A stretch of DNA of 32,000 bases from Pyrodictium abyssi (GTDB lineage Archaea > Thermoproteota > Thermoprotei_A > Sulfolobales > Pyrodictiaceae), in NCBI RefSeq assembly GCF_036323395.1, contig NZ_AP028907.1, positions 60,001 to 92,000 of the forward strand, read 5' to 3'. The translations under genes were made by a program, and so were the position numbers. The first letter of the stretch is position 1, and each line of letters opens with the position of its first letter. This document shows, piece by piece, positions 13,954 through 26,619 of the stretch. The notes below the pieces were generated by a model. The model worked only from the letters and a program-made list of their open reading frames with translations. It had not been told where the DNA came from and searched no databases.

Positions 13954-15444
13954 GTGTTGATGCACAAGCCCCCTATGAACCGGTGGCGCCGCTACACCAT
14001 GTACCGTGTTAACGGTGCTGACAATGCATATGGCGCTACTAGCGGCCTTACCGTGGATAAGGTATTACCCGTGCTATGCTTCTGGTTAGGGCGCTGTGCT
14101 GTGCCGAGGCTGGCTGGCGACTGGTTCATAGACCTGTTTACCAGCGAGGCTGAGAAGCTCATAGAGTCGCTACGTAGCCGCTCGGGGGGCCGCCAGGTCG
14201 ACGTGCCGCCGGCCTACTGGTGGATACCGGGCCTCCCCGAACCCCGGGGGGGCAGGGGCCCGGTGGCTGCGGTCGACGGTGGGGGCGGGCTGGAGCCCCT
14301 CGGCGGCTCGGGCGCCGTCTACATAGCGAGGGCCTACGGCTACGTGGAGGGCGGGGAGCCAGAGAGGGGGCTCGAGCTACGCTTCTACCCCGTCCGCGAG
14401 ACACGTGTCCTCGACGCGCTGAGGAGCTGGCTCGAGCACCGTATCGCTGTGCGCCTCGCCTACCGGCTGCCGCCAGGCAGCATACTACTCATGGACGGTA
14501 GCCTATGGGCCACCGTGACCGCGGGGCTAACAGCGCTCGCTAGGCTCGCCTCCCGGGGAGTGCAGAGCCTGAGCTGGGTCTACACGGCGCTGCTAAGCGG
14601 CTACATGCTCGCCGAGGTCTCGGGGCTCGCCAGGGCCGCGAGGGAGCGCGGGATAACCGTGGCCTACGTGTCCAAGGACCACGGGCTCCGGGCGCTCAAG
14701 GAGAAGGTCCTCCTGGAGGCTGTGGCCGAGAGAGTCCGGGCGCTCCAGCCCCTGGTGTCCCGGGCGCTCGACTACTACCCGCTAGCGCTCCGCGAGCAAC
14801 TCCTCGAGGCACGCCGGCTAGTACCCAGCGAGCTACGAGGCGTCTTCGACGCCGCGCTGGACATGAGCTACCGGGACACAAGCTTCCTCAACGACACCGC
14901 GGGGCCAGGGCTGGGGTACAGCTGGCTACTCCGCATGCCGCCGCCCCAGAAGCTCAGCCAGGCCCTCGCACGGGGAGGGGTGAGAGGGCTCATAGAGCGA
15001 GCTGCTGCTAGGGCTGAGGCCCTCCTGGCAGAGGAGCCGGAGGCCGAGGAGTTCCGCTCGCTGGCCGAGAGGCTCCCTAGGCTCCTCGACGAGCTCCCGT
15101 GCAGCAGGATGTTCTACGTGAGGCTCGGTGTCGGCGACCACCCCCTCCTCGTCGAGCTGCCAGGGGAGCCCGGCTGCTACTACTCCCCAGGCCGGGTCCT
15201 CGAGGAGCCCGGCGGCCTCGTAGAGGAGGTCGTCGCTGTGCTGAGGAGCGGGTACGCTGGCCCCGAGTACTATAACGTCCAGCTGATAGCCGCGCATATG
15301 AACGCTACGCTGTCCTCGAGCCAGCTAGCAAGCTACATGAGGCTACTCGAGCAGCTCGCTGCCGCCCGGGGGCTCCAGCTGAGGCTAGCCCGCCGGAGCC
15401 TCATCAGCCGTAGTCTTCCTCGTAAGCGCCGCCGGCTCGTCTAG
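13954..15444 (+). CDS. NurA-domain nuclease paralog (RNase H-like fold), long form with N-terminal extension and basic C-terminal tail
   Basis: All NurA motifs I can recall from Sulfolobus NurA are present in order: VAAVDGGGG (D108), LEHRIAVRLA (E161), ILLMDGSLW (D181), AYVSKDHG, FYVRLGVG...LLVELP and LIAAHMNA (H448). Alternative starts at ATG 13960, 13975 and 13999. Confidence 0.8.
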   Translation: MLMHKPPMNRWRRYTMYRVNGADNAYGATSGLTVDKVLPVLCFWLGRCAVPRLAGDWFIDLFTSEAEKLIESLRSRSGGRQVDVPPAYWWIPGLPEPRGGRGPVAAVDGGGGLEPLGGSGAVYIARAYGYVEGGEPERGLELRFYPVRETRVLDALRSWLEHRIAVRLAYRLPPGSILLMDGSLWATVTAGLTALARLASRGVQSLSWVYTALLSGYMLAEVSGLARAARERGITVAYVSKDHGLRALKEKVLLEAVAERVRALQPLVSRALDYYPLALREQLLEARRLVPSELRGVFDAALDMSYRDTSFLNDTAGPGLGYSWLLRMPPPQKLSQALARGGVRGLIERAAARAEALLAEEPEAEEFRSLAERLPRLLDELPCSRMFYVRLGVGDHPLLVELPGEPGCYYSPGRVLEEPGGLVEEVVAVLRSGYAGPEYYNVQLIAAHMNATLSSSQLASYMRLLEQLAAARGLQLRLARRSLISRSLPRKRRRLV

Positions 15445-15538: not shown

Positions 15539-17200
15539 CTAGCTGGTGGTCTTGTAGATCGTGTAGTACTGTAGCAGCATTGATGGCCCGACCTTTACGC
15601 CCTCGACGTTCTTCTGTGTCACCACGTAGAGCTTACCCTGCAGTATCGGTATGAATGGCGCGTCCTCGGCTAGTATCTGCTGGACCTTCTCGTAGAGCTT
15701 TGCGCGCTCCTGCTGGTCTGTGAGCACTGCTGCCTCGTCTAGGAGCTTATCCACCTCGGGGTTAGCGTAGCCGGTGCCAGTCCACTTGTTGGCGCCGCTG
15801 TGGAGGAAGGGTGTCAGGAAGTTGTCGGGGTCTATGTAGTCGGGGTACCAGCCTAGTAGGGAGAGCATCATCTGGCCGCTGCGTAGCTGCTTGACGTATG
15901 TCGCCCACTCGCTGCTCTTTAGCTCCACCTCTATTACGCCGGTGCGCTCTAGCTGCTCCTTGATGAGCTGTGCTAGGTCTGCCTCGGTGTCGCCATAGTG
16001 GGTTGGCGTGTACCATAGCTCTAGCTTGAGCTTATTGTTCTCGTCGTAGCCTGCCTGCTTGAGCAGCTTCTTGGCTAGCTCTATGTTGGCGTCGCCGTAC
16101 TTCTCTTTGAACGCGTCTATGTGGCTCCAGAGGCCCTTGGGCACCATGCTGTAGAGCGGCTCCATTGTACCCATGAACACTATGTCTGCTAGCTCCTTGC
16201 GGTCTATGGCGGCCGCTATGGCCTGGCGTACTAGTTTCTCGCTAGTCGGCGCCATCTTCGTGTTGACTACTATGTAGCGTATGAAGCTGCCCGGGACCTC
16301 TATCACTTTGAAGCGGCTGTCCTTCTCTAGCTCGCGGTAGTCGTTGGGCCTTAGCGTCCTCCAGGCTATGTCTACCTCGCCGTTCTCGAGTGCTAGGCGG
16401 AGGGTCGTGGCGTCCTTGTAGAAGCGTATGACCACTGTGGGTGTCTTTGGCTTCTCGCCGTAGTAGTAGGGGTTGGCCTCAAGGATTATGTACTCGTCGC
16501 GCTTGAACTCCTTTATGCAGTATGGCCCGGCGCCGCCCCAGGTGGCGTCGCTCACTATCTGGTCGTCGGGGTACTTCGGGGATACCGGGAAGTATGGCGG
16601 TGTTGCTAGGACTGCTAGGAAGAAGCCGACAGGCTTCTTCAGCGTGAACTTGACCGTGTAGTCGTCTAGCGCCTCTACCTTCTCCACGAACTCTGTTACT
16701 AGCCAGGAGGGGTCTCCCTCTAGCTTCATCACTCTCTCTATGCTGCGTACAACGTTCTGAGCCTTGACCGGTGTGCCGTCACAGAACTTGGCGTCCTTGC
16801 GTAGGTGGAATATCCACACCTTGCCGTCTTCCTGTACTTCCCAGCTCTCTGCCAGGGCTGGCACTATCTTGTCCGTGCCGGGCTCGTACTTGACCAGGCC
16901 TTCCATTATGTTGTTGAGTACCTCCCATGTGAAGAAGTCGTAGGCGTTGGCAGGGTCTAGGTCTGTCACCTTGTCCGTCGTGCCTATCACTATCTTCTCG
17001 GCGAGCTTGGCGCCAGTAGCCGTGGCGGTCTCTGCTTGCTTGGCCTCGGTCGTCTCCGCGGGGGCCGTGGCTGTCCCGGTAGGCGTTGTTGTCTCGGCTG
17101 GCGCGGCTGGGGCGGGCTTCTCGCCGCCGCGTAGGAGTAGCGCTGCGCCTACTACTACGAGGAGTAGGACTATGCCTGCTATAAGCAGGTTCTTCTGCAT
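15539..17200 (-). CDS. ABC transporter substrate-binding protein, family 5 (Dpp/Opp/Nik-like), membrane-anchored with a Thr/Ala/Glu-rich linker
   Basis: Signal/anchor LLIAGIVLLLVVVGAALLL, then the linker APAETTTPTGTATAPAETTEAKQAETATATG, then a typical SBP_bac_5 body (IVIGTTDKVTDLDPA..., WYPDYIDPDNFL). Visibly more AT-rich than neighbouring genes. Confidence 0.9.
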   Translation of the reverse strand: MQKNLLIAGIVLLLVVVGAALLLRGGEKPAPAAPAETTTPTGTATAPAETTEAKQAETATATGAKLAEKIVIGTTDKVTDLDPANAYDFFTWEVLNNIMEGLVKYEPGTDKIVPALAESWEVQEDGKVWIFHLRKDAKFCDGTPVKAQNVVRSIERVMKLEGDPSWLVTEFVEKVEALDDYTVKFTLKKPVGFFLAVLATPPYFPVSPKYPDDQIVSDATWGGAGPYCIKEFKRDEYIILEANPYYYGEKPKTPTVVIRFYKDATTLRLALENGEVDIAWRTLRPNDYRELEKDSRFKVIEVPGSFIRYIVVNTKMAPTSEKLVRQAIAAAIDRKELADIVFMGTMEPLYSMVPKGLWSHIDAFKEKYGDANIELAKKLLKQAGYDENNKLKLELWYTPTHYGDTEADLAQLIKEQLERTGVIEVELKSSEWATYVKQLRSGQMMLSLLGWYPDYIDPDNFLTPFLHSGANKWTGTGYANPEVDKLLDEAAVLTDQQERAKLYEKVQQILAEDAPFIPILQGKLYVVTQKNVEGVKVGPSMLLQYYTIYKTTS

Positions 17201-17407: not shown

Positions 17408-19390
17408 TTGACCGAGGGCCATAGACCTATACCGGTTATGGTTGTTCTCCGTGGACGCGTCGCCGCGGCCCGTGTGCCGCGGGTTGGCTCGCGCTGGCTC
17501 GGCGGCCTCCTCGTGGAGCTGGAGACTGGTGCGCGGGTCCACCTCCTCATGCCCGGCGCTATCGCCCGGTGGCTGCAGAGGGGCGAGCGGGTAGAGGTCC
17601 GGTTCCTAGAGGAGCCGGAGAGCGTCGACGGGGTCTACGTGGCGCCGAGGGACTCCTACGAGCTCTGGAGGCTCTGGGGCGGCGAGGGCAGGGAGGAGAG
17701 GATCCAGGTCTGGCCCCCGTGGAGCCGGAGCGCTAGGCTCGAGCGGGAGAGCGTGCTCGGCGAGAAGGTCTACGAGTACCGCATAGTCGCCAGGGAGGCT
17801 GTCACAGAGGACGACTTCCGGGAGATAGTCGGGCTAGAGCAGTACCACTACGCTAGCCGGGAGGAGATAGTGGCTATATGGAGGTGCCCCGTCTGCGGCG
17901 GCTACGCCGAGGCAAACGTCCAGCCGTCGTGCCCCCGCTGCAACGTGCCCATGAAGCTCCAGGAGATACGCGGGAGCCTCCCCTCCAGCAGGTTCATGGT
18001 GCTCGAACTCGTCTCCAGGGAGCCCTACGAGCCCCGGATAGTAGCGTACGTGAGGGTTGACACGCCTATACCCTTGATGCACCGCCGTATAGTCCGGGAG
18101 GACGGGAGCATAGAGATAGAGCGGATGATAAGGGAGCGGGTGTTCCCTAAGGACTGGTTCCACCCAACGTTCTGGCCCCTGGCCTATACGCGGCGGGCTG
18201 AGCTGCGGAAGCGCTTCCAGGAGCTAGCCGGGCTCTACGGCTCTCGCCGCATAGCCCGCGCCGCCGTAGGCGAGGAGATAGCGGAGGAGGCCCTCCGCCG
18301 CGCTAATACTGCTGCCGCGCGTATAGCCCGTGTCGTGGTGCACCCTGACTACCGCGGGGACGGTATCGGCGTCCTCGCCGTCAGGATGGCGCTGGAGTGG
18401 ATACGGGAGCGCCGTATCCCCGAGATGAAGAGGAGGAAACACGTAGTCGAGACAATAGCCCAGATGGCTAGGTTCAACCCGTTCTTCGAGAAGGCCGGGT
18501 TCCGCTACATGTGGGACACTGCTAGCGGCCGGCCCGTGCTCATGTACCCGCTCACCGAGGAGGCCCGGAGGAGGATAGAGGAGTTCCTCGAGAAGGACCC
18601 CTACGCCCGGCGCCACGGCGGCAGGCTCTTCCGGCCGCGCTATGGCGGCGTAGAGCCGCTCGCTGGGCCAGTGAGGCTCGTAGACGTTACGAAGATCTAC
18701 CGTAGCGAGCTAGACGTCTCCCGTCTCCCGCCGGAGCTACAGGACGTGTTACGCGCCTTCGGCGCCGAGAGGAGGCGGGTAGAGCGCTATGTGCTACGCG
18801 GCACGAGCCTCGAGATACGCCCTGGCGAGGTAGTGGCTGTCGTCGGCGCCAGCGGTGCCGGTAAGACAACACTACTACGCATGATCATAGGCGCCGCGCT
18901 GGGCACGGGTGACGAGAGGTACCGGCCGAGCCAGGGCAGGGTCGAGGTACCGGGCAACGTGAGGCTAGCGGCTCTGCTGCCCGGCGAGATGGAGCCGGTG
19001 TTCCGGGACGAGACGCTGCTGGAGCACGTGGCCCGGAAGATGGACGACCCCGCCGCAGCCGTGGAGATACTCAACGCGGTTGGGCTGAGCGACGCCATAT
19101 TCTACCGTGCCCGGTTCGACGAGCTGTCAACCGGCCAGAAGGAGCGCGCCCGGCTGGCCAGCTTGCTCGCGGAGAGGCCCAACCTGCTGGTGATAGACGA
19201 GTTCACCGCGCACCTAGACCGGTTGACCGCGCAGAGGGTTGCCCGGAAGCTGGGCAGCCTAGCGCGCCGCGCGGGCATAACCCTAGTGGTCTCCACTAAC
19301 CGGCCAGAGGTGCTCCAGGCGCTAGCGCCGGATAAGGTGGTGCTAGTGGGCTACGGCACGGCCGTGGTCGCCGAGGAGCGGGCCCGGTAG
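17408..19390 (+). CDS. multidomain protein: N-terminal beta-rich region, GNAT acetyltransferase with inserted CxxC...CxxC zinc ribbon, and C-terminal ABC-type ATPase domain (COG2401-like architecture)
   Basis: Zn ribbon CPVCGG-x11-CPRC (nt 17885-17941). GNAT motif A RVVVHPDYRGDGIGVLAV (nt 18329-18379). Walker A GASGAGKTT (18845-18871), signature LSTGQ (19124-19138) and Walker B LLVIDE (19184-19201). TTG start at 17408, with an alternative in-frame ATG at 17438. Confidence 0.85.
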   Translation: MTEGHRPIPVMVVLRGRVAAARVPRVGSRWLGGLLVELETGARVHLLMPGAIARWLQRGERVEVRFLEEPESVDGVYVAPRDSYELWRLWGGEGREERIQVWPPWSRSARLERESVLGEKVYEYRIVAREAVTEDDFREIVGLEQYHYASREEIVAIWRCPVCGGYAEANVQPSCPRCNVPMKLQEIRGSLPSSRFMVLELVSREPYEPRIVAYVRVDTPIPLMHRRIVREDGSIEIERMIRERVFPKDWFHPTFWPLAYTRRAELRKRFQELAGLYGSRRIARAAVGEEIAEEALRRANTAAARIARVVVHPDYRGDGIGVLAVRMALEWIRERRIPEMKRRKHVVETIAQMARFNPFFEKAGFRYMWDTASGRPVLMYPLTEEARRRIEEFLEKDPYARRHGGRLFRPRYGGVEPLAGPVRLVDVTKIYRSELDVSRLPPELQDVLRAFGAERRRVERYVLRGTSLEIRPGEVVAVVGASGAGKTTLLRMIIGAALGTGDERYRPSQGRVEVPGNVRLAALLPGEMEPVFRDETLLEHVARKMDDPAAAVEILNAVGLSDAIFYRARFDELSTGQKERARLASLLAERPNLLVIDEFTAHLDRLTAQRVARKLGSLARRAGITLVVSTNRPEVLQALAPDKVVLVGYGTAVVAEERAR

Positions 19391-19475
19391 AGCCTTCACC
19401 CCCTCCATCACGTCTGTACCCATCCTAACCTGGGGGCCTGTCCTGGCGGAGAAACGTGGCCCGAAGAGGCTTGTA

Positions 19476-20687
19476 GTGATAACCGGGGTCTCTGGGGTAG
19501 AGCTGGCCCCGCTGCTGAGGCTCGCGGAGGAGCTGGGAGCCGCCACCGCGAAGTACGAGGAGTTCGTAGAGGAGGAGTTCAAGGCACCGATCTATCACGT
19601 GGCCGAGCTCCTGCTGGTGGACTATCGGCGCACGGCTGAGCGCTTCGAGAAGGCCTTCAGGAGGATGCTGGACAGCCTCTCAGGCTCCGAGGCCGCCGTG
19701 GTGGCCGCGCACGCCGCTTACTACCGGCGCAGCAACATAGTAGCTAGTCCGCTCACCGGGTTCGTGCACAGGCTAGCAGCGAGAGGCGAGGCCTCGGTAG
19801 CCATAGTGGACTACGTGGACGACTACTACCATATACTCTATCGGCTCGCCGACCGCGTAGCCCGGGGCGAGACCCCGGAGGTGGCCGGGTTCCAGGTCCT
19901 AGACCCGGCGGGGCTCCTCTACTGGAGAAGCACCCACCACAGCATAGCACAGCTGGCTGCGATACACGGCGTGGAGTTCTACGTCTACGCCTCGAAGCAC
20001 AGTAGGGAGGGCCACCAGCGGCTCCTCGCGATGCTCCTAGGCATGGAGCCGGATGGCGGCGGCAGCTTCCACACAGTCTACGTCTCCCACCCCATAACCA
20101 GGGTGCGGGCCCGGGCGCTCCAGGAGGGCGCGGCGCTGGACCGGTACCCCGACGCGCTCGAGATAGAGGAGTTCAAGAAGACGCTCGAGGAGAGCTGCCC
20201 CAGCCTCGTGGTCTTCTCGCCCACTACGGTGGACGAGCTGATCACGGACCCGGCTACGGGGAGGCTGAAGACCCGGATAGAGCGGAGCGAGCGCTGGCCA
20301 CACGGCGAGAACGGGCTCCACGAGTACCCCTACCCCGTAGACCTCCGGGACCGGCTATTCGACCTCCACCTATACCCTGTCGAGGATACCACCGGCAACC
20401 CGGGCTACATGAGCTACCTCCAGTCGCAGATCGAGGCCAGCATAGAGAGGAGAGACCTAGGCTACGTAGCCCAGGCAGACATGATAGTAGCCTACCGGCC
20501 AACCATGTACGGCGAGACGCACATGGGCGTAGAGACAGAGATAAAGACAGCCGTGGCCATGGCGAAGCCCGTGTACAGCGTAGTACCGAGGGAGGAGAGG
20601 AGCATAGCCTACCGGCTCTTCAGGTTCGAGTACCCCCTCAGCAGCATAGACGAGCTGCTAAGCGTGCTCCGCTGCCCCCGCCGCTAG
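19476..20687 (+). CDS. uncharacterised protein; the C-terminal ~175 aa possibly have a nucleoside 2-deoxyribosyltransferase-like (Rossmann-like) fold
   Basis: Clean 403-aa ORF whose GTG is the only canonical start, 85 nt after the upstream gene, with no AT-rich box between them. The C-terminal pattern TVYVSHPIT ... ADMIVAYRP..GETHMGVETEIKTAVAMAKPVYSV resembles the NDT/DUF4406 pattern (YxAGP ... aDxvva...D.Gt..E.G.A.a.gKPv). Confidence 0.65.
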   Translation: MITGVSGVELAPLLRLAEELGAATAKYEEFVEEEFKAPIYHVAELLLVDYRRTAERFEKAFRRMLDSLSGSEAAVVAAHAAYYRRSNIVASPLTGFVHRLAARGEASVAIVDYVDDYYHILYRLADRVARGETPEVAGFQVLDPAGLLYWRSTHHSIAQLAAIHGVEFYVYASKHSREGHQRLLAMLLGMEPDGGGSFHTVYVSHPITRVRARALQEGAALDRYPDALEIEEFKKTLEESCPSLVVFSPTTVDELITDPATGRLKTRIERSERWPHGENGLHEYPYPVDLRDRLFDLHLYPVEDTTGNPGYMSYLQSQIEASIERRDLGYVAQADMIVAYRPTMYGETHMGVETEIKTAVAMAKPVYSVVPREERSIAYRLFRFEYPLSSIDELLSVLRCPRR

Positions 20688-20933
20688 CCGGGAACAGCAC
20701 CGAAGAGAGCATTGAAGAGGACCCGCTACAGCTCCATAGTGCACTACAGCCGGGAGGAGAAGGCGGACACGGGGGTAGGGGGCCCGCAGCAGAAGCTAGC
20801 TAGAAGCCCCGGAGAACGCCCAGAGCCATCATACACCGAGCTCGCACCCGGCAGCCGTATTACCGACAGCCACAGGGTAGTGGGTAGTGTGCCACGTGAT
20901 AGCGGCCTAGACAATCCGGTTAGGGGCCGGGCA

Positions 20934-21287
20934 ATGCCGCAGATGAAGGCTTGCCTGGTCTGCCACGTGCCCTTCTACGCCGCGTTCGCCCTATTCGTGT
21001 ACATCGGCGCCAGTCATGCCCTAGAAGGGCAAGCCCAGCTAGCCGCTTTCTACCTCGCGAGCCTCTTCGCTACACTGGGGTCCGGGTACGCCTGCTGTAG
21101 ACGCTTCGGCGCAGACCGCCTTCCGCCAGCCGCTAGCGTGCTACGGGCCGTGTGGCCTGCGATCGCCGCACCCATAATACCCATCGGGGCAGCCATGTTG
21201 TGCTCTAAACAACTCGGGCCGGAACCAGCACTATGCCGTCTCCGACCCAAACTCGTTCTTCTACGCCGCGCTGCTAGTATACGCTAA
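20934..21287 (+). CDS. possible small membrane protein (117 aa from the ATG at 20934)
   Basis: Hydrophobic segments follow MPQMKACLVCHVPFYAAFALFVYIGA. The longer TTG-initiated ORF from 20712 has a polar, non-descript N-terminus. No family recognised. Confidence 0.3.
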   Translation: MPQMKACLVCHVPFYAAFALFVYIGASHALEGQAQLAAFYLASLFATLGSGYACCRRFGADRLPPAASVLRAVWPAIAAPIIPIGAAMLCSKQLGPEPALCRLRPKLVLLRRAASIR

Positions 21288-21406: not shown

Positions 21407-21980
21407 CTAGAGCTGCTCCCGGAGCCTGGCTAGTGCCTCCTCGTGCTCCCGGGCCCACTTTCCTTCACGCTCTAGTCTGGGCTTAACCCTCTCCTCGATA
21501 ATCCCCACTAGTATCCTGGCTAAGCGCAGTATATCGCCCGCTGCTTCCTCGCGGCCCCGGTACTTCGATAGCTCGGCGTCGGGGTCCGGGCCGTGGTACT
21601 GGCAGTCGTGGAGATCGAGCGCGGTGCTTGTGAAGTGAGTGTAGTAGGTGTACCCGGAGTCCTCAACGAGGCTGCTAATAGCCTTCAGCCTGCTACTAGG
21701 CACTCGGGGTACTGCCTTCTCCGTGAACCATTTCCTCTGTTCCCCGCTGAGCCTCCCGAGTATCTTGTCCCTCTCTAGGGCAAGTATCGCAGCTGTTAGT
21801 GCCCTCCATGCCTGGTAACGCCTTCCCTGCAGCATTCCTCGTTAACCCTTCCTCGAGAAACCTTAGCGCCAGTAGGGCCTCGAGCGGTGCCTCAAGGATG
21901 CGGGCGGCAGCATAGCCTACGGGGTCTTTCCTCGGCTTTGGCAGCGGCCGGTCGACAGCTACAGTCTCCCTCGCCCACAA
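21407..21980 (-). pseudogene. PaREP1-family gene (copy 2) split by a +1 frameshift near 21816
   Basis: ORF 21696-21980 encodes the N-terminus (...PLPKPRKDPVGYAAARILEAPLEALLALRFLEEGLTRNAAGKA). ORF 21407-21835 in another frame encodes the rest (YQAWRALTAAILALERD...LHDCQYHGPDP...). Copy 1 reads GCGTTCCAGGCGTGG where copy 2 reads GCGTTACCAGGCATGG, i.e. one extra base. Confidence 0.7.
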
Positions 21981-22176: not shown

Positions 22177-23592
22177 CTACTCTCGGCGCCTATCGTCCCG
22201 CCGGCCCGTCGGGGCCACACTCTGGGGCTGCGCTGGGACCGCTGCCGGGGGCTGCTGCGGCTGCCCTGTCGCCGGAGCCGGCGCTGGCCATGCCTGAACC
22301 GGCGGCTGGACTGGGACCGGGGGCTGGCCCTGGTAGGGCGGCTGAGGCGCCGCGTACGGGTATGGAGCGGGCTGCCACTGCTGCGGCTGCTGCACCGGGG
22401 CCGCGTAGTAGGCCTGGTACGGCTGCTGGGCCAGCGGCTGGACAGGGGGCTGCGGGTGTAGCGGCTGCTGGCCTGCCTGGTAGGCTGGCTGCTGGACAGG
22501 CTGGATGCCCGCCCCGGGTTGCTGACCCGGGGCCTGCTGTGGCCAGGCCTGGTAGCCGAGCCACTGCACCTGGCTGGGCTGCTGGACCGCTGGCGCCGGC
22601 GGCTGCACGGGGGGCTGCTGTGGCTGGGGCGGGGTGTAGGCCGGCGGCGCTGGTGGCTGCTCCTGCCGTGTCGTGGGCGGCTGTGCTGCGAAGGCGCGCT
22701 GGTAGGCTGCGCGTATGTCCTCGTCTAGTAGGTGGAGGTAGATCTGCGTCACCTTGATGTCGTGGTGGCCGAGGAGCCTCTGCACCACGGGGAGCGGGAC
22801 GCCGCGGCGGAGCGCCTCTGTGGCGAACGTGTGGCGGAGCACGTGGGGCCGGACACGGCGCGGGTCCAGGCCAGCACGGCGGGCCAGGGTCTTGAGCCTC
22901 TTGTAGAGCCCGCTGTAGCTTATACCGAGCAGGGAGTCGTCTGGGCCGAGCCCCGGGTTGACGGCCAGCCATATCGCCAGCGCCTGCTCGGTCAAGGGCC
23001 CGTAGAGGACTACCCGCTCCTCGCCGTACTTGGCGTTCCTTACGCGTATCTCGCGCCGCCTAGTGTCTATGTCGCGTAGCCGTAGCCCTACCGCCTCCTG
23101 GGCGCGGAGCCCCGTCTCGAAGAGCAGCGCGACTATCAGCAGGTCTAGGGGGTCGCGCGCAGCCGATACCAGCCGCTCGACCTCCTCAGGCCTTAGGGCC
23201 TCGACCCGCGGGCTCCGGGGCTTACGCACCACCGGGACCTTCACGCCTAGGCCGAGCCACTCTAGGAACCCGCGGAGGAACAGCGTGTAGTAGTGCATCG
23301 TGGTCTGCCGCTCCCTCCTCTCCTCCGCGGGGTCGCTGTCACGGCTCCGGGGCCTCTGGAGCCCGCGGGTCAGCCGGTCGTATATCCAGGCGGAGACGTC
23401 GCTGCTCGTTACCTCGCGGAGCGGCTTGCCCCCTATGAACGAGAGGAAGTCGCTTATCGCCGCCCGGTACGCCTTCACGGTCTTAGGGCTAGCGCCAGCA
23501 GCGGCCAGCGCCGCAAGGAACGCCTCCATAGCCTCCCTGTTGCCCCGCTCCAGGATCCCCGGCGGTGGCGGCGGCAGGTCGAACCGCGTCAC
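22177..23592 (-). CDS. xerA: tyrosine recombinase, XerA/XerC/D-like integrase, with a ~169-aa Pro/Gln-rich C-terminal extension
   Basis: SAM-like N-domain (SPKTVKAYRAAISDFLSF). Catalytic residues ETGLR (R163), NAKYG (K188), HVLRHTFAT (H250, R253), LGHHD and VTQIY (Y285). GTG start with a TATA-like ATATAG ~20-25 nt upstream. Confidence 0.85.
   Translation of the reverse strand: MTRFDLPPPPPGILERGNREAMEAFLAALAAAGASPKTVKAYRAAISDFLSFIGGKPLREVTSSDVSAWIYDRLTRGLQRPRSRDSDPAEERRERQTTMHYYTLFLRGFLEWLGLGVKVPVVRKPRSPRVEALRPEEVERLVSAARDPLDLLIVALLFETGLRAQEAVGLRLRDIDTRRREIRVRNAKYGEERVVLYGPLTEQALAIWLAVNPGLGPDDSLLGISYSGLYKRLKTLARRAGLDPRRVRPHVLRHTFATEALRRGVPLPVVQRLLGHHDIKVTQIYLHLLDEDIRAAYQRAFAAQPPTTRQEQPPAPPAYTPPQPQQPPVQPPAPAVQQPSQVQWLGYQAWPQQAPGQQPGAGIQPVQQPAYQAGQQPLHPQPPVQPLAQQPYQAYYAAPVQQPQQWQPAPYPYAAPQPPYQGQPPVPVQPPVQAWPAPAPATGQPQQPPAAVPAQPQSVAPTGRRDDRRRE
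22180..22686 (-). other. low-complexity Pro/Gln/Ala/Tyr/Trp-rich tail-coding region of the recombinase gene
   Basis: Residues ~303-471: AQPPTTRQEQPPAPPAYTPPQPQQPPVQPPAPAVQQPSQVQWLGYQAWPQQAPGQQPG...PVQPPVQAWPAPAPATGQPQQPP..., ending GRRDDRRRE. The DNA is a degenerate CAGCAGCC/GGCTGCTG-type repeat that also creates long spurious ORFs in other frames. Confidence 0.8.

Positions 23593-24600: not shown

Positions 24601-26619
<2,019 letters not shown>

Follow-up and report, generated by a model that had tools for sequence, protein, structure and literature searches.

A stretch of 32,000 nucleotides from Pyrodictium abyssi (RefSeq assembly GCF_036323395.1, contig NZ_AP028907.1, forward-strand positions 60,001 to 92,000), called the window in the following, contains two neighbouring genes of the same orientation (Table 1). 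The first encodes a protein of 660 amino acids (aa) which joins a GNAT acetyltransferase domain to an ABC-type ATPase domain, here named the fusion. The second encodes a two-domain protein of 403 aa. In the list of open reading frames (ORFs), 85 nucleotides (nt) separate the two genes. The original prediction, made from the sequence, regarded the pair as a candidate two-gene module acting in RNA or nucleotide modification or in defence. Its coordinates, strand, lengths and spacing of the two ORFs are correct, and every motif quoted in it is present in the translations. These are CPVC-x11-CPRC (residues 160-178), RVVVHPDYRGDGIGVLAV (308-325), GASGAGKTT (480-488), LSTGQ (573-577) and LLVIDE (593-598) in the fusion, and ITGVSGVE, VYVSHPIT and ADMIVAYRP..GETHMGVETEIKTAVAMAKPVY in the 403-aa protein.

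The pairing itself is restricted to a single clade. A set of 27 genome loci (numbered with the prefix L) was anchored on the 403-aa gene; 24 were informative, the fusion being scored as absent only where 2 kb or more of sequence upstream was available. The fusion gene is located directly upstream in seven of them (L001, L002, L004, L006, L007, L008, L021), all from close Pyrodictiaceae. It is absent from 17, among them the Pyrodictiaceae locus L003, Pyrodictium sp. L019 and all loci of Desulfurococcales, Acidilobaceae, Caldivirga and Thermocladium. A second set of 85 loci was anchored on the fusion. Enough downstream sequence was available in 59 loci, and the 403-aa gene was present in five and missing in 54. 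After grouping of the fusions at 80% identity, the pair occurred in 6 of 48 groups, which belong to one clade with at least 72% identity to the fusion of the window. P. delaneyi retains the pair. Fusion genes without the pair adjoin a DUF488 gene on the opposite strand in Pyrolobus, a gene for an unrelated 547-aa protein in Aeropyrum, flavin reductase and Maf genes in a Desulfurococcaceae genome, and a gene for a membrane-like 152-aa protein in P. furiosus. A universal neighbour of the 403-aa gene was searched for and not found. A two-gene module in the sense of an adjacency conserved across divergent lineages is thus not observed: the genes are syntenic in one Pyrodictiaceae clade alone, and outside this clade each has other neighbours.

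A gene for a solute-binding protein (SBP) of the SBP_bac_5 type is located upstream of the fusion in the window. It is syntenic within the clade and not part of the system. SBP-like genes (cluster C2) precede the fusion in L004, L006 and L008, and in L005 and L019 an SBP-like gene of this cluster is found close to the 403-aa gene, without the fusion. Since the upstream SBP gene is syntenic in the same clade as the pair, inherited gene order suffices to explain the pairing.

The gap between the two genes is GC-rich. A reading of its sequence revealed neither a TATA-like box nor an oligo-T tract, in agreement with the predicted lack of an AT-rich promoter-like box. The in-frame translation of the gap was set against P. 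delaneyi and other homologs. Its 3' part (about 19440-19475) continues the reading frame of the 403-aa ORF upstream and codes for a conserved N-terminal strand, ..PKRLVV. In P. abyssi and P. delaneyi (L028:8042-8089), the first canonical start codon follows only after the ..KRLVV strand that stands before ITGVSG. With the start called in P. delaneyi, the 403-aa homolog would lose the invariant GxSG motif. This suggests a mis-called start or a non-canonical initiation, e.g. CTG at 19443, and the true start of the gene is probably located upstream of 19476. The real intergenic gap may therefore be shorter than 85 nt.

The GNAT–ABC fusion and its ASCH neighbour

An AlphaFold2 (AF2) model of the fusion (pLDDT 87, pTM 0.82) consists of an all-β N-terminal domain, a GNAT domain with a ribbon insert, a linker and an ABC nucleotide-binding domain (NBD). 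The Pfam model ABC_tran matches with an E-value of 2.4e-19 (70.8 bits). Two GNAT models pass their cut-offs, Acetyltransf_7 with 28.0 versus 27 bits and Acetyltransf_1 with 26.5 versus 20.7 bits. Together with matches to RUBY_RBDX, these results bear out the β-rich N-domain, the GNAT domain, the zinc ribbon and the ABC domain of the original prediction. The N-terminal β-domain obtained no assignment from PDB or Pfam, where only weak and scattered matches to OB-folds appeared. A profile of the N-terminal 290 residues yielded solely matches of the Zn-ribbon type in the same two databases. Whole-chain Foldseek searches were dominated by ABC NBDs and left the β-domain without a fold match.

Conservation was studied in an alignment of 30 sequences (A2) and in a broader set of 20 sequences (A3). 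In A3, the motif LEQYHYAS in the β1/α1 region of the GNAT domain is conserved. The acetyl-CoA-binding motif A (R316-G-D-G319-I-G321) has R316, G317, G319 and G321 invariant in 30 of 30 sequences. The rubredoxin-like ribbon was matched by RUBY_RBDX in 18 of 20 fusion members, and matches to rubrerythrin and eL43 were weak. C160, C163 and C175 are invariant in A2. Position 178 is occupied by His (14), Asp (10) or Cys (6 of 30 sequences). In A3, C163 is absent from three of the 20 sequences. In Thermomicrobium roseum, C163 is replaced by Asp. The ribbon proposed as CxxC-x11-CxxC is real, but its fourth ligand is a Cys in just 6 of 30 members.

The NBD has intact Walker A, signature, Walker B and D-loop motifs (GASGAGKTT, LSTGQ, IDE, AHLD). 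G480, S482-T488, L573-Q577, D597-E598 and A601-D604 are invariant in all 30 sequences; position 481 is Ala in 27 and Leu in three. The Q- and H-loop positions were placed by alignment to the solved NBDs of DppD and component A2. The Q-loop reads Pro-Gly-Glu (18980-18988), with Gly526 at the position of the Gln, and Asn631 (19298-19300) occupies the position of the H-loop His. The Gly is found in 28 and the Asn in 29 of 30 members (the archaeal ones), and the T. roseum homolog keeps the H-loop His. The description as a transporter-type ABC domain is correct for the ABC motifs, but not for the Q-loop Gln and the H-loop His, which are replaced in 28-29 of 30 members.

Fusion homologs form more than 120 clusters at 63-96% identity, a range which spans Pyrodictium, Pyrolobus, Aeropyrum, Staphylothermus and Desulfurococcaceae. 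Identities of about 48-63% were obtained for Thermococcus, Pyrococcus, Palaeococcus, Korarchaeota and Asgard archaea as well as for the bacteria Thermomicrobium, Thermorudis, Thermoflexus and Bipolaricaulaceae. Archaeal and thermophilic-bacterial fusions share about 50% identity over some 640 residues. All named sources are thermophiles or originate from hot habitats. The family is catalogued, as had been predicted, and carries the JGI name 'ABC-type ATPase with predicted acetyltransferase domain'. This name matches the description of COG2401. The 660-aa protein is a typical member, of the same length, architecture and motifs, and the architecture of COG2401-type proteins shows no difference from it. 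Literature searches found no published characterization of COG2401 or of a GNAT–ABC fusion in archaea. The fusion represents a large, unusually well conserved, catalogued and uncharacterized family.

Clustering of the ORFs around the fusion gave no neighbour common to all loci; the one that recurs most often is a small ASCH-domain protein. ASCH proteins have a PUA-like RNA-binding fold. An ASCH gene (about 120-170 aa) is located directly upstream of the fusion, divergent or co-directional, in 16 archaeal loci of seven lineage groups. A protein search of a plasmid collection identified a full-length fusion homolog on the megaplasmid of T. roseum, with 51% identity over 642 residues. An annotated ASCH gene lies downstream of it, convergent and overlapping, and Bipolaricaulaceae have the same arrangement. 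In Njordarchaeales (Asgard), a convergent ASCH gene is present 1.4 kb downstream of the fusion. The ASCH proteins of these three sources match a hidden Markov model (HMM) of the archaeal fusion-adjacent ASCH proteins with E-values of 1e-20 to 1e-28. Hence, the adjacency occurs in three orientations, in Thermoproteota, Asgard, Thermomicrobium and Bipolaricaulaceae. Retained in three orientations and in two domains of life, it argues for a functional link far more strongly than the pairing with the 403-aa gene does. In the Njordarchaeales locus, a toxin-antitoxin-like pair of the HEPN/nucleotidyltransferase (MNT) type (L122:6976-7729, minus strand) is inserted between the fusion and the ASCH gene. 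In P. furiosus, the fusion is overlapped by a gene for a 152-aa protein, which is not an ASCH protein; its sequence has a membrane-like appearance.

The ASCH protein YqfB of Escherichia coli hydrolyses N4-acetylcytidine (ac4C) (PMC6972931). According to a bioRxiv preprint of 2026 (10.64898/2026.02.27.708502), 19 ASCH proteins, archaeal ones among them, strip ac4C from tRNA, and ac4C increases with growth temperature in hyperthermophilic archaea. The recurrent ASCH neighbour, in combination with the reported ac4C deacetylation by ASCH proteins, points to a role of the fusion in nucleic-acid or nucleoside acetylation. The earlier idea of RNA or nucleotide modification thereby gains indirect support for the fusion, but none from the 403-aa gene. 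No report of the conserved ASCH partnership across two domains of life, or of the non-canonical NBD, was found in the literature searched.

Two groups of known proteins resemble the fusion. TmcA, NAT10 and Kre33 also join a GNAT domain to an NTPase, and ATP is proposed to gate the acetyl transfer. The linkage of the fusion to ASCH, a family of ac4C erasers, fits a nucleic-acid or nucleoside target as in these enzymes. In contrast, their ATPase is a RecD-like helicase, while that of the fusion is an ABC NBD. Pfam searches of the fusion gave no match to Helicase_RecD, tRNA_bind_2 or DUF1726, and GNAT_acetyltr_2 remained below its cut-off (E-value 0.093, 12.5 versus 24.6 bits). Judged by its domains, the fusion is not a member of the TmcA/NAT10 family. 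Soluble ABC ATPases, e.g. SufC, the MCR-activation component A2, ABC-F and ABCE1, share with the fusion an NBD without a membrane partner, and ATP-driven NBD dimerization is presumed to move the attached domains. One of the best hits at the sequence level is component A2 (8s7v_K). The fusion differs from this group by a single NBD per chain, which is joined to a GNAT domain, and by the replaced Q- and H-loop residues.

The 403-aa protein and its family

Searches with the 403-aa protein against Pfam, NCBIfam and PADLOC yielded no family above cut-off. The closest model, Nuc_deoxyrib_tr (PF05014), reached 17.1 bits versus a cut-off of 28.8 (E-value 0.006). It was matched by 29 of 30 family members with a best E-value of 6e-5, and by the relative P0153 with 26 bits. 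An AF2 model built on 30 homologs (pLDDT 91, pTM 0.91) was divided by Foldseek into a kinase-like N-terminal half and a C-terminal half resembling nucleoside 2-deoxyribosyltransferases (NDTs). A library of viral structures returned the same two fold classes, including viral N-deoxyribosyltransferases. A full-length structural match was found neither in PDB nor in BFVD.

The N-domain matches archaeal adenylate, shikimate and dephospho-CoA kinases. The match to the Odinarchaeota adenylate kinase had a Foldseek E-value of 7.5e-5 and a TMt of 0.64-0.69. Profile A5 matched the adenylate kinase 6ln3 with an E-value of 0.0066, aligning the kinase motif GvpGvGKtt to GqsGveiks. Fold and topology agree with those of archaeal adenylate and nucleoside-monophosphate (NMP) kinases, and the conserved 'tH' strand aligns (H79). 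The Walker A motif is degenerate, G4-V-S-G7-V-E-L in the window and G4xxG7x[DE]L in the family; its Lys and Thr are missing in all aligned members. Unlike NMP kinases, the family reads G-x-[ST]-G-x-[DEN]-[LIK], without the Walker A Lys and Ser/Thr, which makes a canonical phosphotransfer unlikely. Invariant residues of the N-domain are H79, D116, W150, R151, K174 and H175.

The C-domain matched YtoQ (8of6) and the NDTs 7o62 and 9emw with Foldseek probabilities of 0.99-1.0 and TMt values of 0.59-0.67. Profiles of Rcl/DNPH1 matched with E-values of 0.02-0.3 and align the Rcl motif GVGYE to GVETE355. The domain shares the fold and a β-strand–loop–G-V-x-x-E motif with DNPH1/Rcl, NDTs and YtoQ. In contrast to DNPH1 and NDTs, the first-strand motif is Y-x-S-H-P-I and not Y-x-A-G, large inserts are present at about 255-310, and a pseudo-kinase domain is fused N-terminally. 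Y202, H205, D253, R273-W274, R326-D327 and E355 (codon 20538-20540) are invariant. E355, D327 and Y202 remain so down to about 21% identity. The sole exception for E355 is L027, where the C-terminus looks frameshifted; every intact homolog keeps the residue. The complete set invariant to 21% identity comprises G7, H79, D116, W150, R151, Y202, P249, D253, W274, R326, D327, G351 and E355. It contains a putative Tyr/Asp/Glu triad of the NDT type and a basic/aromatic group in the pseudo-kinase domain. Tyr and Asp may act as catalytic residues beside Glu355. Both halves had been recognized in the original prediction, the N-half by a degenerate P-loop and the C-half by an NDT-like pattern with E355 at the position of the catalytic Glu. 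The structure searches agree with and strengthen this assignment, with NMP-kinase folds for the N-half and NDT/YtoQ/DNPH1 folds for the C-half, and an unrelated well-characterized family was not assigned by any profile or fold search.

An exhaustive profile search identified 652 representative clusters at E-values up to 1e-3 and 250 at up to 1e-10. The clusters are defined at 50% identity, and the family thus comprises at least 650. Lengths are about 390-440 aa, about 515-570 aa and in some cases 640-695 aa. Pfam searches with ten relatives gave nothing above cut-off. The few named relatives are hypothetical proteins of Desulfurococcales. In its architecture, the 403-aa protein is a new variant which combines a pseudo-adenylate-kinase with an NDT/DNPH1-like domain; its sizeable family lacks a Pfam model.

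In archaea, the homologs are found among heterogeneous housekeeping genes coding for MoaE/ThiS, GcvT, eRF1, ribosomal protein L3, SIS and DUF5591. In four loci of Caldivirga/Thermoproteaceae, a gene for Endonuclease-dU (Endo-dU, PF01949/DUF99) overlaps the stop codon of the distant 403-aa homolog. Endo-dU is a deoxyuridine-specific DNA endonuclease (PMC11585767). The overlap possibly indicates an operon which ties the NDT-like protein to the handling of deoxyuridine. A family of small ORFs named C4 (71-95 aa, without cysteines or Pfam match) flanks archaeal 403-aa homologs in eight loci and in varied orientations; the window contains no C4-like ORF. The C4 HMM matched weakly to a CopA-type copper P-type ATPase with HMA domains (L011, L014), probably in the HMA region.

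Distant relatives of about 525-700 aa (P0255, P0195, P0193, P0211; L114-L118) adjoin either a Bacteroidota-type integrase with HTH_17 and a NYN nuclease, or AIPR, AAA+, a 1439-aa STAND-like NTPase or RadC. The setting looks like a mobile element or a defence island, without a PADLOC match. A co-directional ORF of 68-80 aa follows directly after the relative in all five loci. Homology of these ORFs to the C4 ORFs was not supported (hhalign probability 0.15%).

Other genes of the window were recorded as well. The 403-aa gene is closely followed by an ORF of 191 aa (20712-21287, plus strand), which has no family match and no homolog in related loci and is therefore probably not a genuine gene. 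It is followed by a PaREP1-family gene on the opposite strand (21407-21835) and a tyrosine recombinase gene (22177-23592, minus strand). The recombinase is XerA-like, with Phage_integrase and a SAM-like N-domain. At its C-terminus it has an unusual low-complexity tail, about 180 residues long and rich in Pro and Gln. P. delaneyi and L001 carry the gene in a syntenic position. An acetyl-CoA synthetase gene (ACAS_N, AMP-binding; 24601-26619, plus strand), which has a syntenic counterpart in P. delaneyi, is located some 4 kb downstream of the pair. Its proximity is probably coincidental, though the enzyme supplies the co-substrate of GNAT proteins. An archaeal ATPase gene (PF01637; 12799-13797, plus strand) and then a divergent NurA-like nuclease gene (13954-15444, plus strand, E-value 3.8e-7) precede the SBP gene. 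In P. delaneyi and L001, synteny with the fusion locus extends to the NurA-like gene. HerA was not detected among the window ORFs scanned. Scans for Rfam families, tRNAs and tandem repeats gave nothing relevant in the window, and the GC content is even across the region, without an anomaly.

Table 1. Coordinates of the two genes, their domains and the compared neighbours (window positions; L, compared loci).
Feature	Position	Strand	Basis
660-aa GNAT–ABC fusion gene, annotated 'GNAT family N-acetyltransferase'	17408..19390	+	ORF list, Pfam, homologs
N-terminal all-β domain, residues ~1-117	17408..17758	+	AF2: 9 β-strands
GNAT domain with inserts, residues ~118-382	17759..18553	+	Pfam 292-366; AF2 secondary structure; alignment A3
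Rubredoxin-like Zn ribbon inserted in GNAT, residues ~156-187 (C160, C163, C175, C178)	17873..17968	+	RUBY_RBDX
Acetyl-CoA-binding motif A RVVVHPDYRGDGIGVLAV, R316-x-x-G319-x-G321	18329..18382	+	Conservation
Single ABC NBD, residues ~421-655	18668..19372	+	Pfam, Foldseek, alignments
Intergenic gap	19391..19475	+	GC-rich; sequence read
403-aa two-domain protein gene	19476..20687	+	ORF list; identical NCBI protein 'hypothetical protein', P. abyssi
N-domain, residues ~1-195, archaeal adenylate-kinase-like P-loop fold	19476..20060	+	Foldseek, profile A5
C-domain, residues ~198-403, NDT/DNPH1-like fold	20067..20684	+	PF05014, Foldseek, Rcl/DNPH1 profiles
SBP_bac_5-type solute-binding protein gene, divergent, upstream of fusion	15539..17200	-	P. 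delaneyi ortholog annotated SBP_bac_5
ASCH upstream of fusion	L064, L070, L072, L073, L078, L079, L083, L086		
ASCH upstream of fusion	L089-L091, L095, L099, L104, L108, L112		
ASCH near fusion, bacterial/Asgard loci	L119:8818-9228; L121:6881-7252; L122:8389-8799	-	HMM
Endo-dU genes	L022:3561-4142, L023:8876-9457, L024:8942-9523, L025:1106-1708		
C4 ORFs	L003:9314-9529, L005:2447-2683, L019:9334-9570, L013:7659-7889		
C4 ORFs	L010:8494-8781, L012:5606-5848, L018:9136-9420, L113:6640-6876	-	

Readings of the gene pair

With moderate confidence, the two genes are regarded as encoding separately conserved enzymes, whose adjacency is specific to one lineage, a Pyrodictium/Hyperthermus-like clade; they are perhaps co-transcribed and form no obligate two-gene system. 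Several observations weigh against this interpretation. In the Pyrodictiaceae clade, both genes of the pair invariably have the same orientation. Most loci have gaps between -4 and about 35 nt, and P. abyssi and P. delaneyi have 85-100 nt. The pair is retained even where the 403-aa protein has diverged to 60% identity and the flank downstream differs. Co-direction, short gaps and persistence fit a functional operon. Both proteins and ASCH are plausibly nucleotide- or nucleoside-centred, and a shared pathway is possible. The window has no ASCH gene, and the ASCH adjacency is also absent in Thermococcales, Aeropyrum and Pyrolobus. The sequence-level matches of the 403-aa protein to NDTs and adenylate kinases are marginal (E-values of 0.007-0.3) and rely on predicted structures. 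Thus, a lineage-specific operon in Pyrodictiaceae is possible, as all loci with the pair, in six lineage groups, have both genes in the same direction and -4 to about 100 nt apart. In such an operon, the fusion would acetylate a nucleoside, a nucleotide or an RNA base, and the NDT/DNPH1-like enzyme would cleave or salvage the product, in an ASCH-like clean-up. The GC-rich gap, free of a TATA-like box and an oligo-T tract, is in favour of this proposal. So are the occupation of the slot of the 403-aa gene elsewhere by ASCH, AGOG and Maf, genes for damaged or modified nucleotides, and the overlap of the Caldivirga homolog with the Endo-dU gene. However, the adjacency is limited to the clade in which the SBP gene is syntenic too, and inherited order explains it equally well. 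Close relatives lack the pair, namely Pyrolobus, with 74-75% fusion identity, L038, L077 and L111, and Pyrodictium sp. L019 and L003 carry the 403-aa gene without the fusion. Such an operon acting in one pathway, the original prediction narrowed to this clade, is considered rather unlikely.

A function in transport was evaluated for the fusion, as the ATPase subunit of an ABC transporter with a regulatory GNAT domain, perhaps together with the SBP_bac_5 protein and with the 403-aa gene unrelated. The best NCBIfam and PDB matches of the fusion are indeed transporter NBDs, with MJ0796, LolD and HrtA as Foldseek matches of the NBD (TMt 0.70-0.75), and a divergent SBP gene precedes the fusion both in the window and in related loci. 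But all NCBIfam transporter matches are far below their cut-offs, and the Q-loop Gln, which contacts the coupling helix of the permease, is Gly in 28 of 30 members. The SBP gene is not found beside the fusion outside the clade. A permease is not adjacent in the window, is not recurrent among the 85 fusion-anchored loci clustered, and does not adjoin the fusion in the complete and reference genomes examined. The missing membrane partner had been predicted; the SBP_bac_5 gene is solitary. Altogether, a transporter subunit is very unlikely. Still less credible, and close to negligible, is an anti-virus or conflict system made up of the pair or either gene, with the NDT-like protein as a nucleotide-depleting or -modifying effector and the ATPase–GNAT protein as a sensor. 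Domains of the NDT, SLOG and TIR-like types are recurrent components of conflict systems. The fusion matches mad3, mad8 and AriA of PADLOC, but these matches cover the generic ABC domain alone. Some distant relatives of about 530-700 aa adjoin genes for an integrase, a NYN nuclease, AIPR, STAND-like or AAA+ proteins. In contrast, the 403-aa protein and four distant relatives had zero matches in PADLOC-DB 2.0, and their neighbours gave generic ATPase matches only. The 403-aa protein was unmatched in phage and plasmid collections. The fusion was unmatched on phages, and its one match in the plasmid collection is the non-mobilizable, 918-kb megaplasmid of T. roseum. The high conservation of the fusion (about 50% identity between archaea and bacteria), its location among housekeeping genes and the even GC content also argue against defence. 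The suggestion of a defence role was thus not sustained, in view of the missing specific PADLOC match, the chromosomal housekeeping contexts and the absence of both genes from phages.

Proposed mechanism and significance

For the two separately conserved enzymes, individual mechanisms are proposed. The fusion would be a soluble GNAT acetyltransferase acting as a homodimer. With Walker A, signature and Walker B intact, an ATP-driven closure of two fusion NBDs is proposed. ATP binding would clamp the NBDs head-to-tail and gate the acetyltransferase activity. The replacement of the H-loop His and the Q-loop Gln makes slow hydrolysis without coupling to a permease probable. The NBD may thus serve as an ATP-dependent clamp or switch which places two GNAT active sites, and not as a transport motor. 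The β-domain and the Zn ribbon are likely involved in substrate recognition and may position a macromolecular or nucleoside substrate. Since the recurrent ASCH neighbour belongs to a family that binds RNA and reportedly deacetylates ac4C, a nucleic-acid or nucleoside amine is the most likely class of substrate. ASCH could either erase the product or serve as an adaptor that binds RNA.

The 403-aa protein is proposed to be a nucleotide N-glycosidase or transferase of the NDT/DNPH1 superfamily with a Tyr202/Asp327/Glu355 triad. The pseudo-kinase domain would hold the NMP moiety without phosphate transfer; its glycine-rich loop and the conserved His, Arg and Lys could grip the phosphate or the NMP. 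The DNPH1-like domain would cleave or exchange the base of the nucleotide. The neighbourhoods with Endo-dU, ASCH, AGOG and Maf suggest a non-canonical nucleotide as substrate. A more specific proposal assigns the fusion as an ATP-gated nucleic-acid or nucleoside N-acetyltransferase of thermophiles, e.g. a TmcA/Nat10-independent writer of ac4C or a related acetylated base. It would be paired, as writer with eraser or with adaptor, with a dedicated ASCH subfamily in Thermoproteota, Asgard archaea and thermophilic bacteria. In Pyrodictiaceae, the place of ASCH would be filled functionally by the 403-aa protein, as a hitherto undescribed pseudo-kinase/DNPH1-like N-glycosidase which removes the modified nucleotide. 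This proposal is rated as unlikely.

For genome annotation, the result is a caution against calling a module from the adjacency of two genes in one genome. The 403-aa family, with its inactivated adenylate-kinase fold and DNPH1-like domain, would extend the nucleotide-sanitizing and salvage enzymes. The fusion is among the better-conserved hyperthermophile proteins without an assigned function in this analysis. Its linkage to ASCH makes a temperature-linked acetylation of RNA or nucleosides a testable hypothesis, and the gene is present in the genetically tractable Thermococcus and Pyrococcus.

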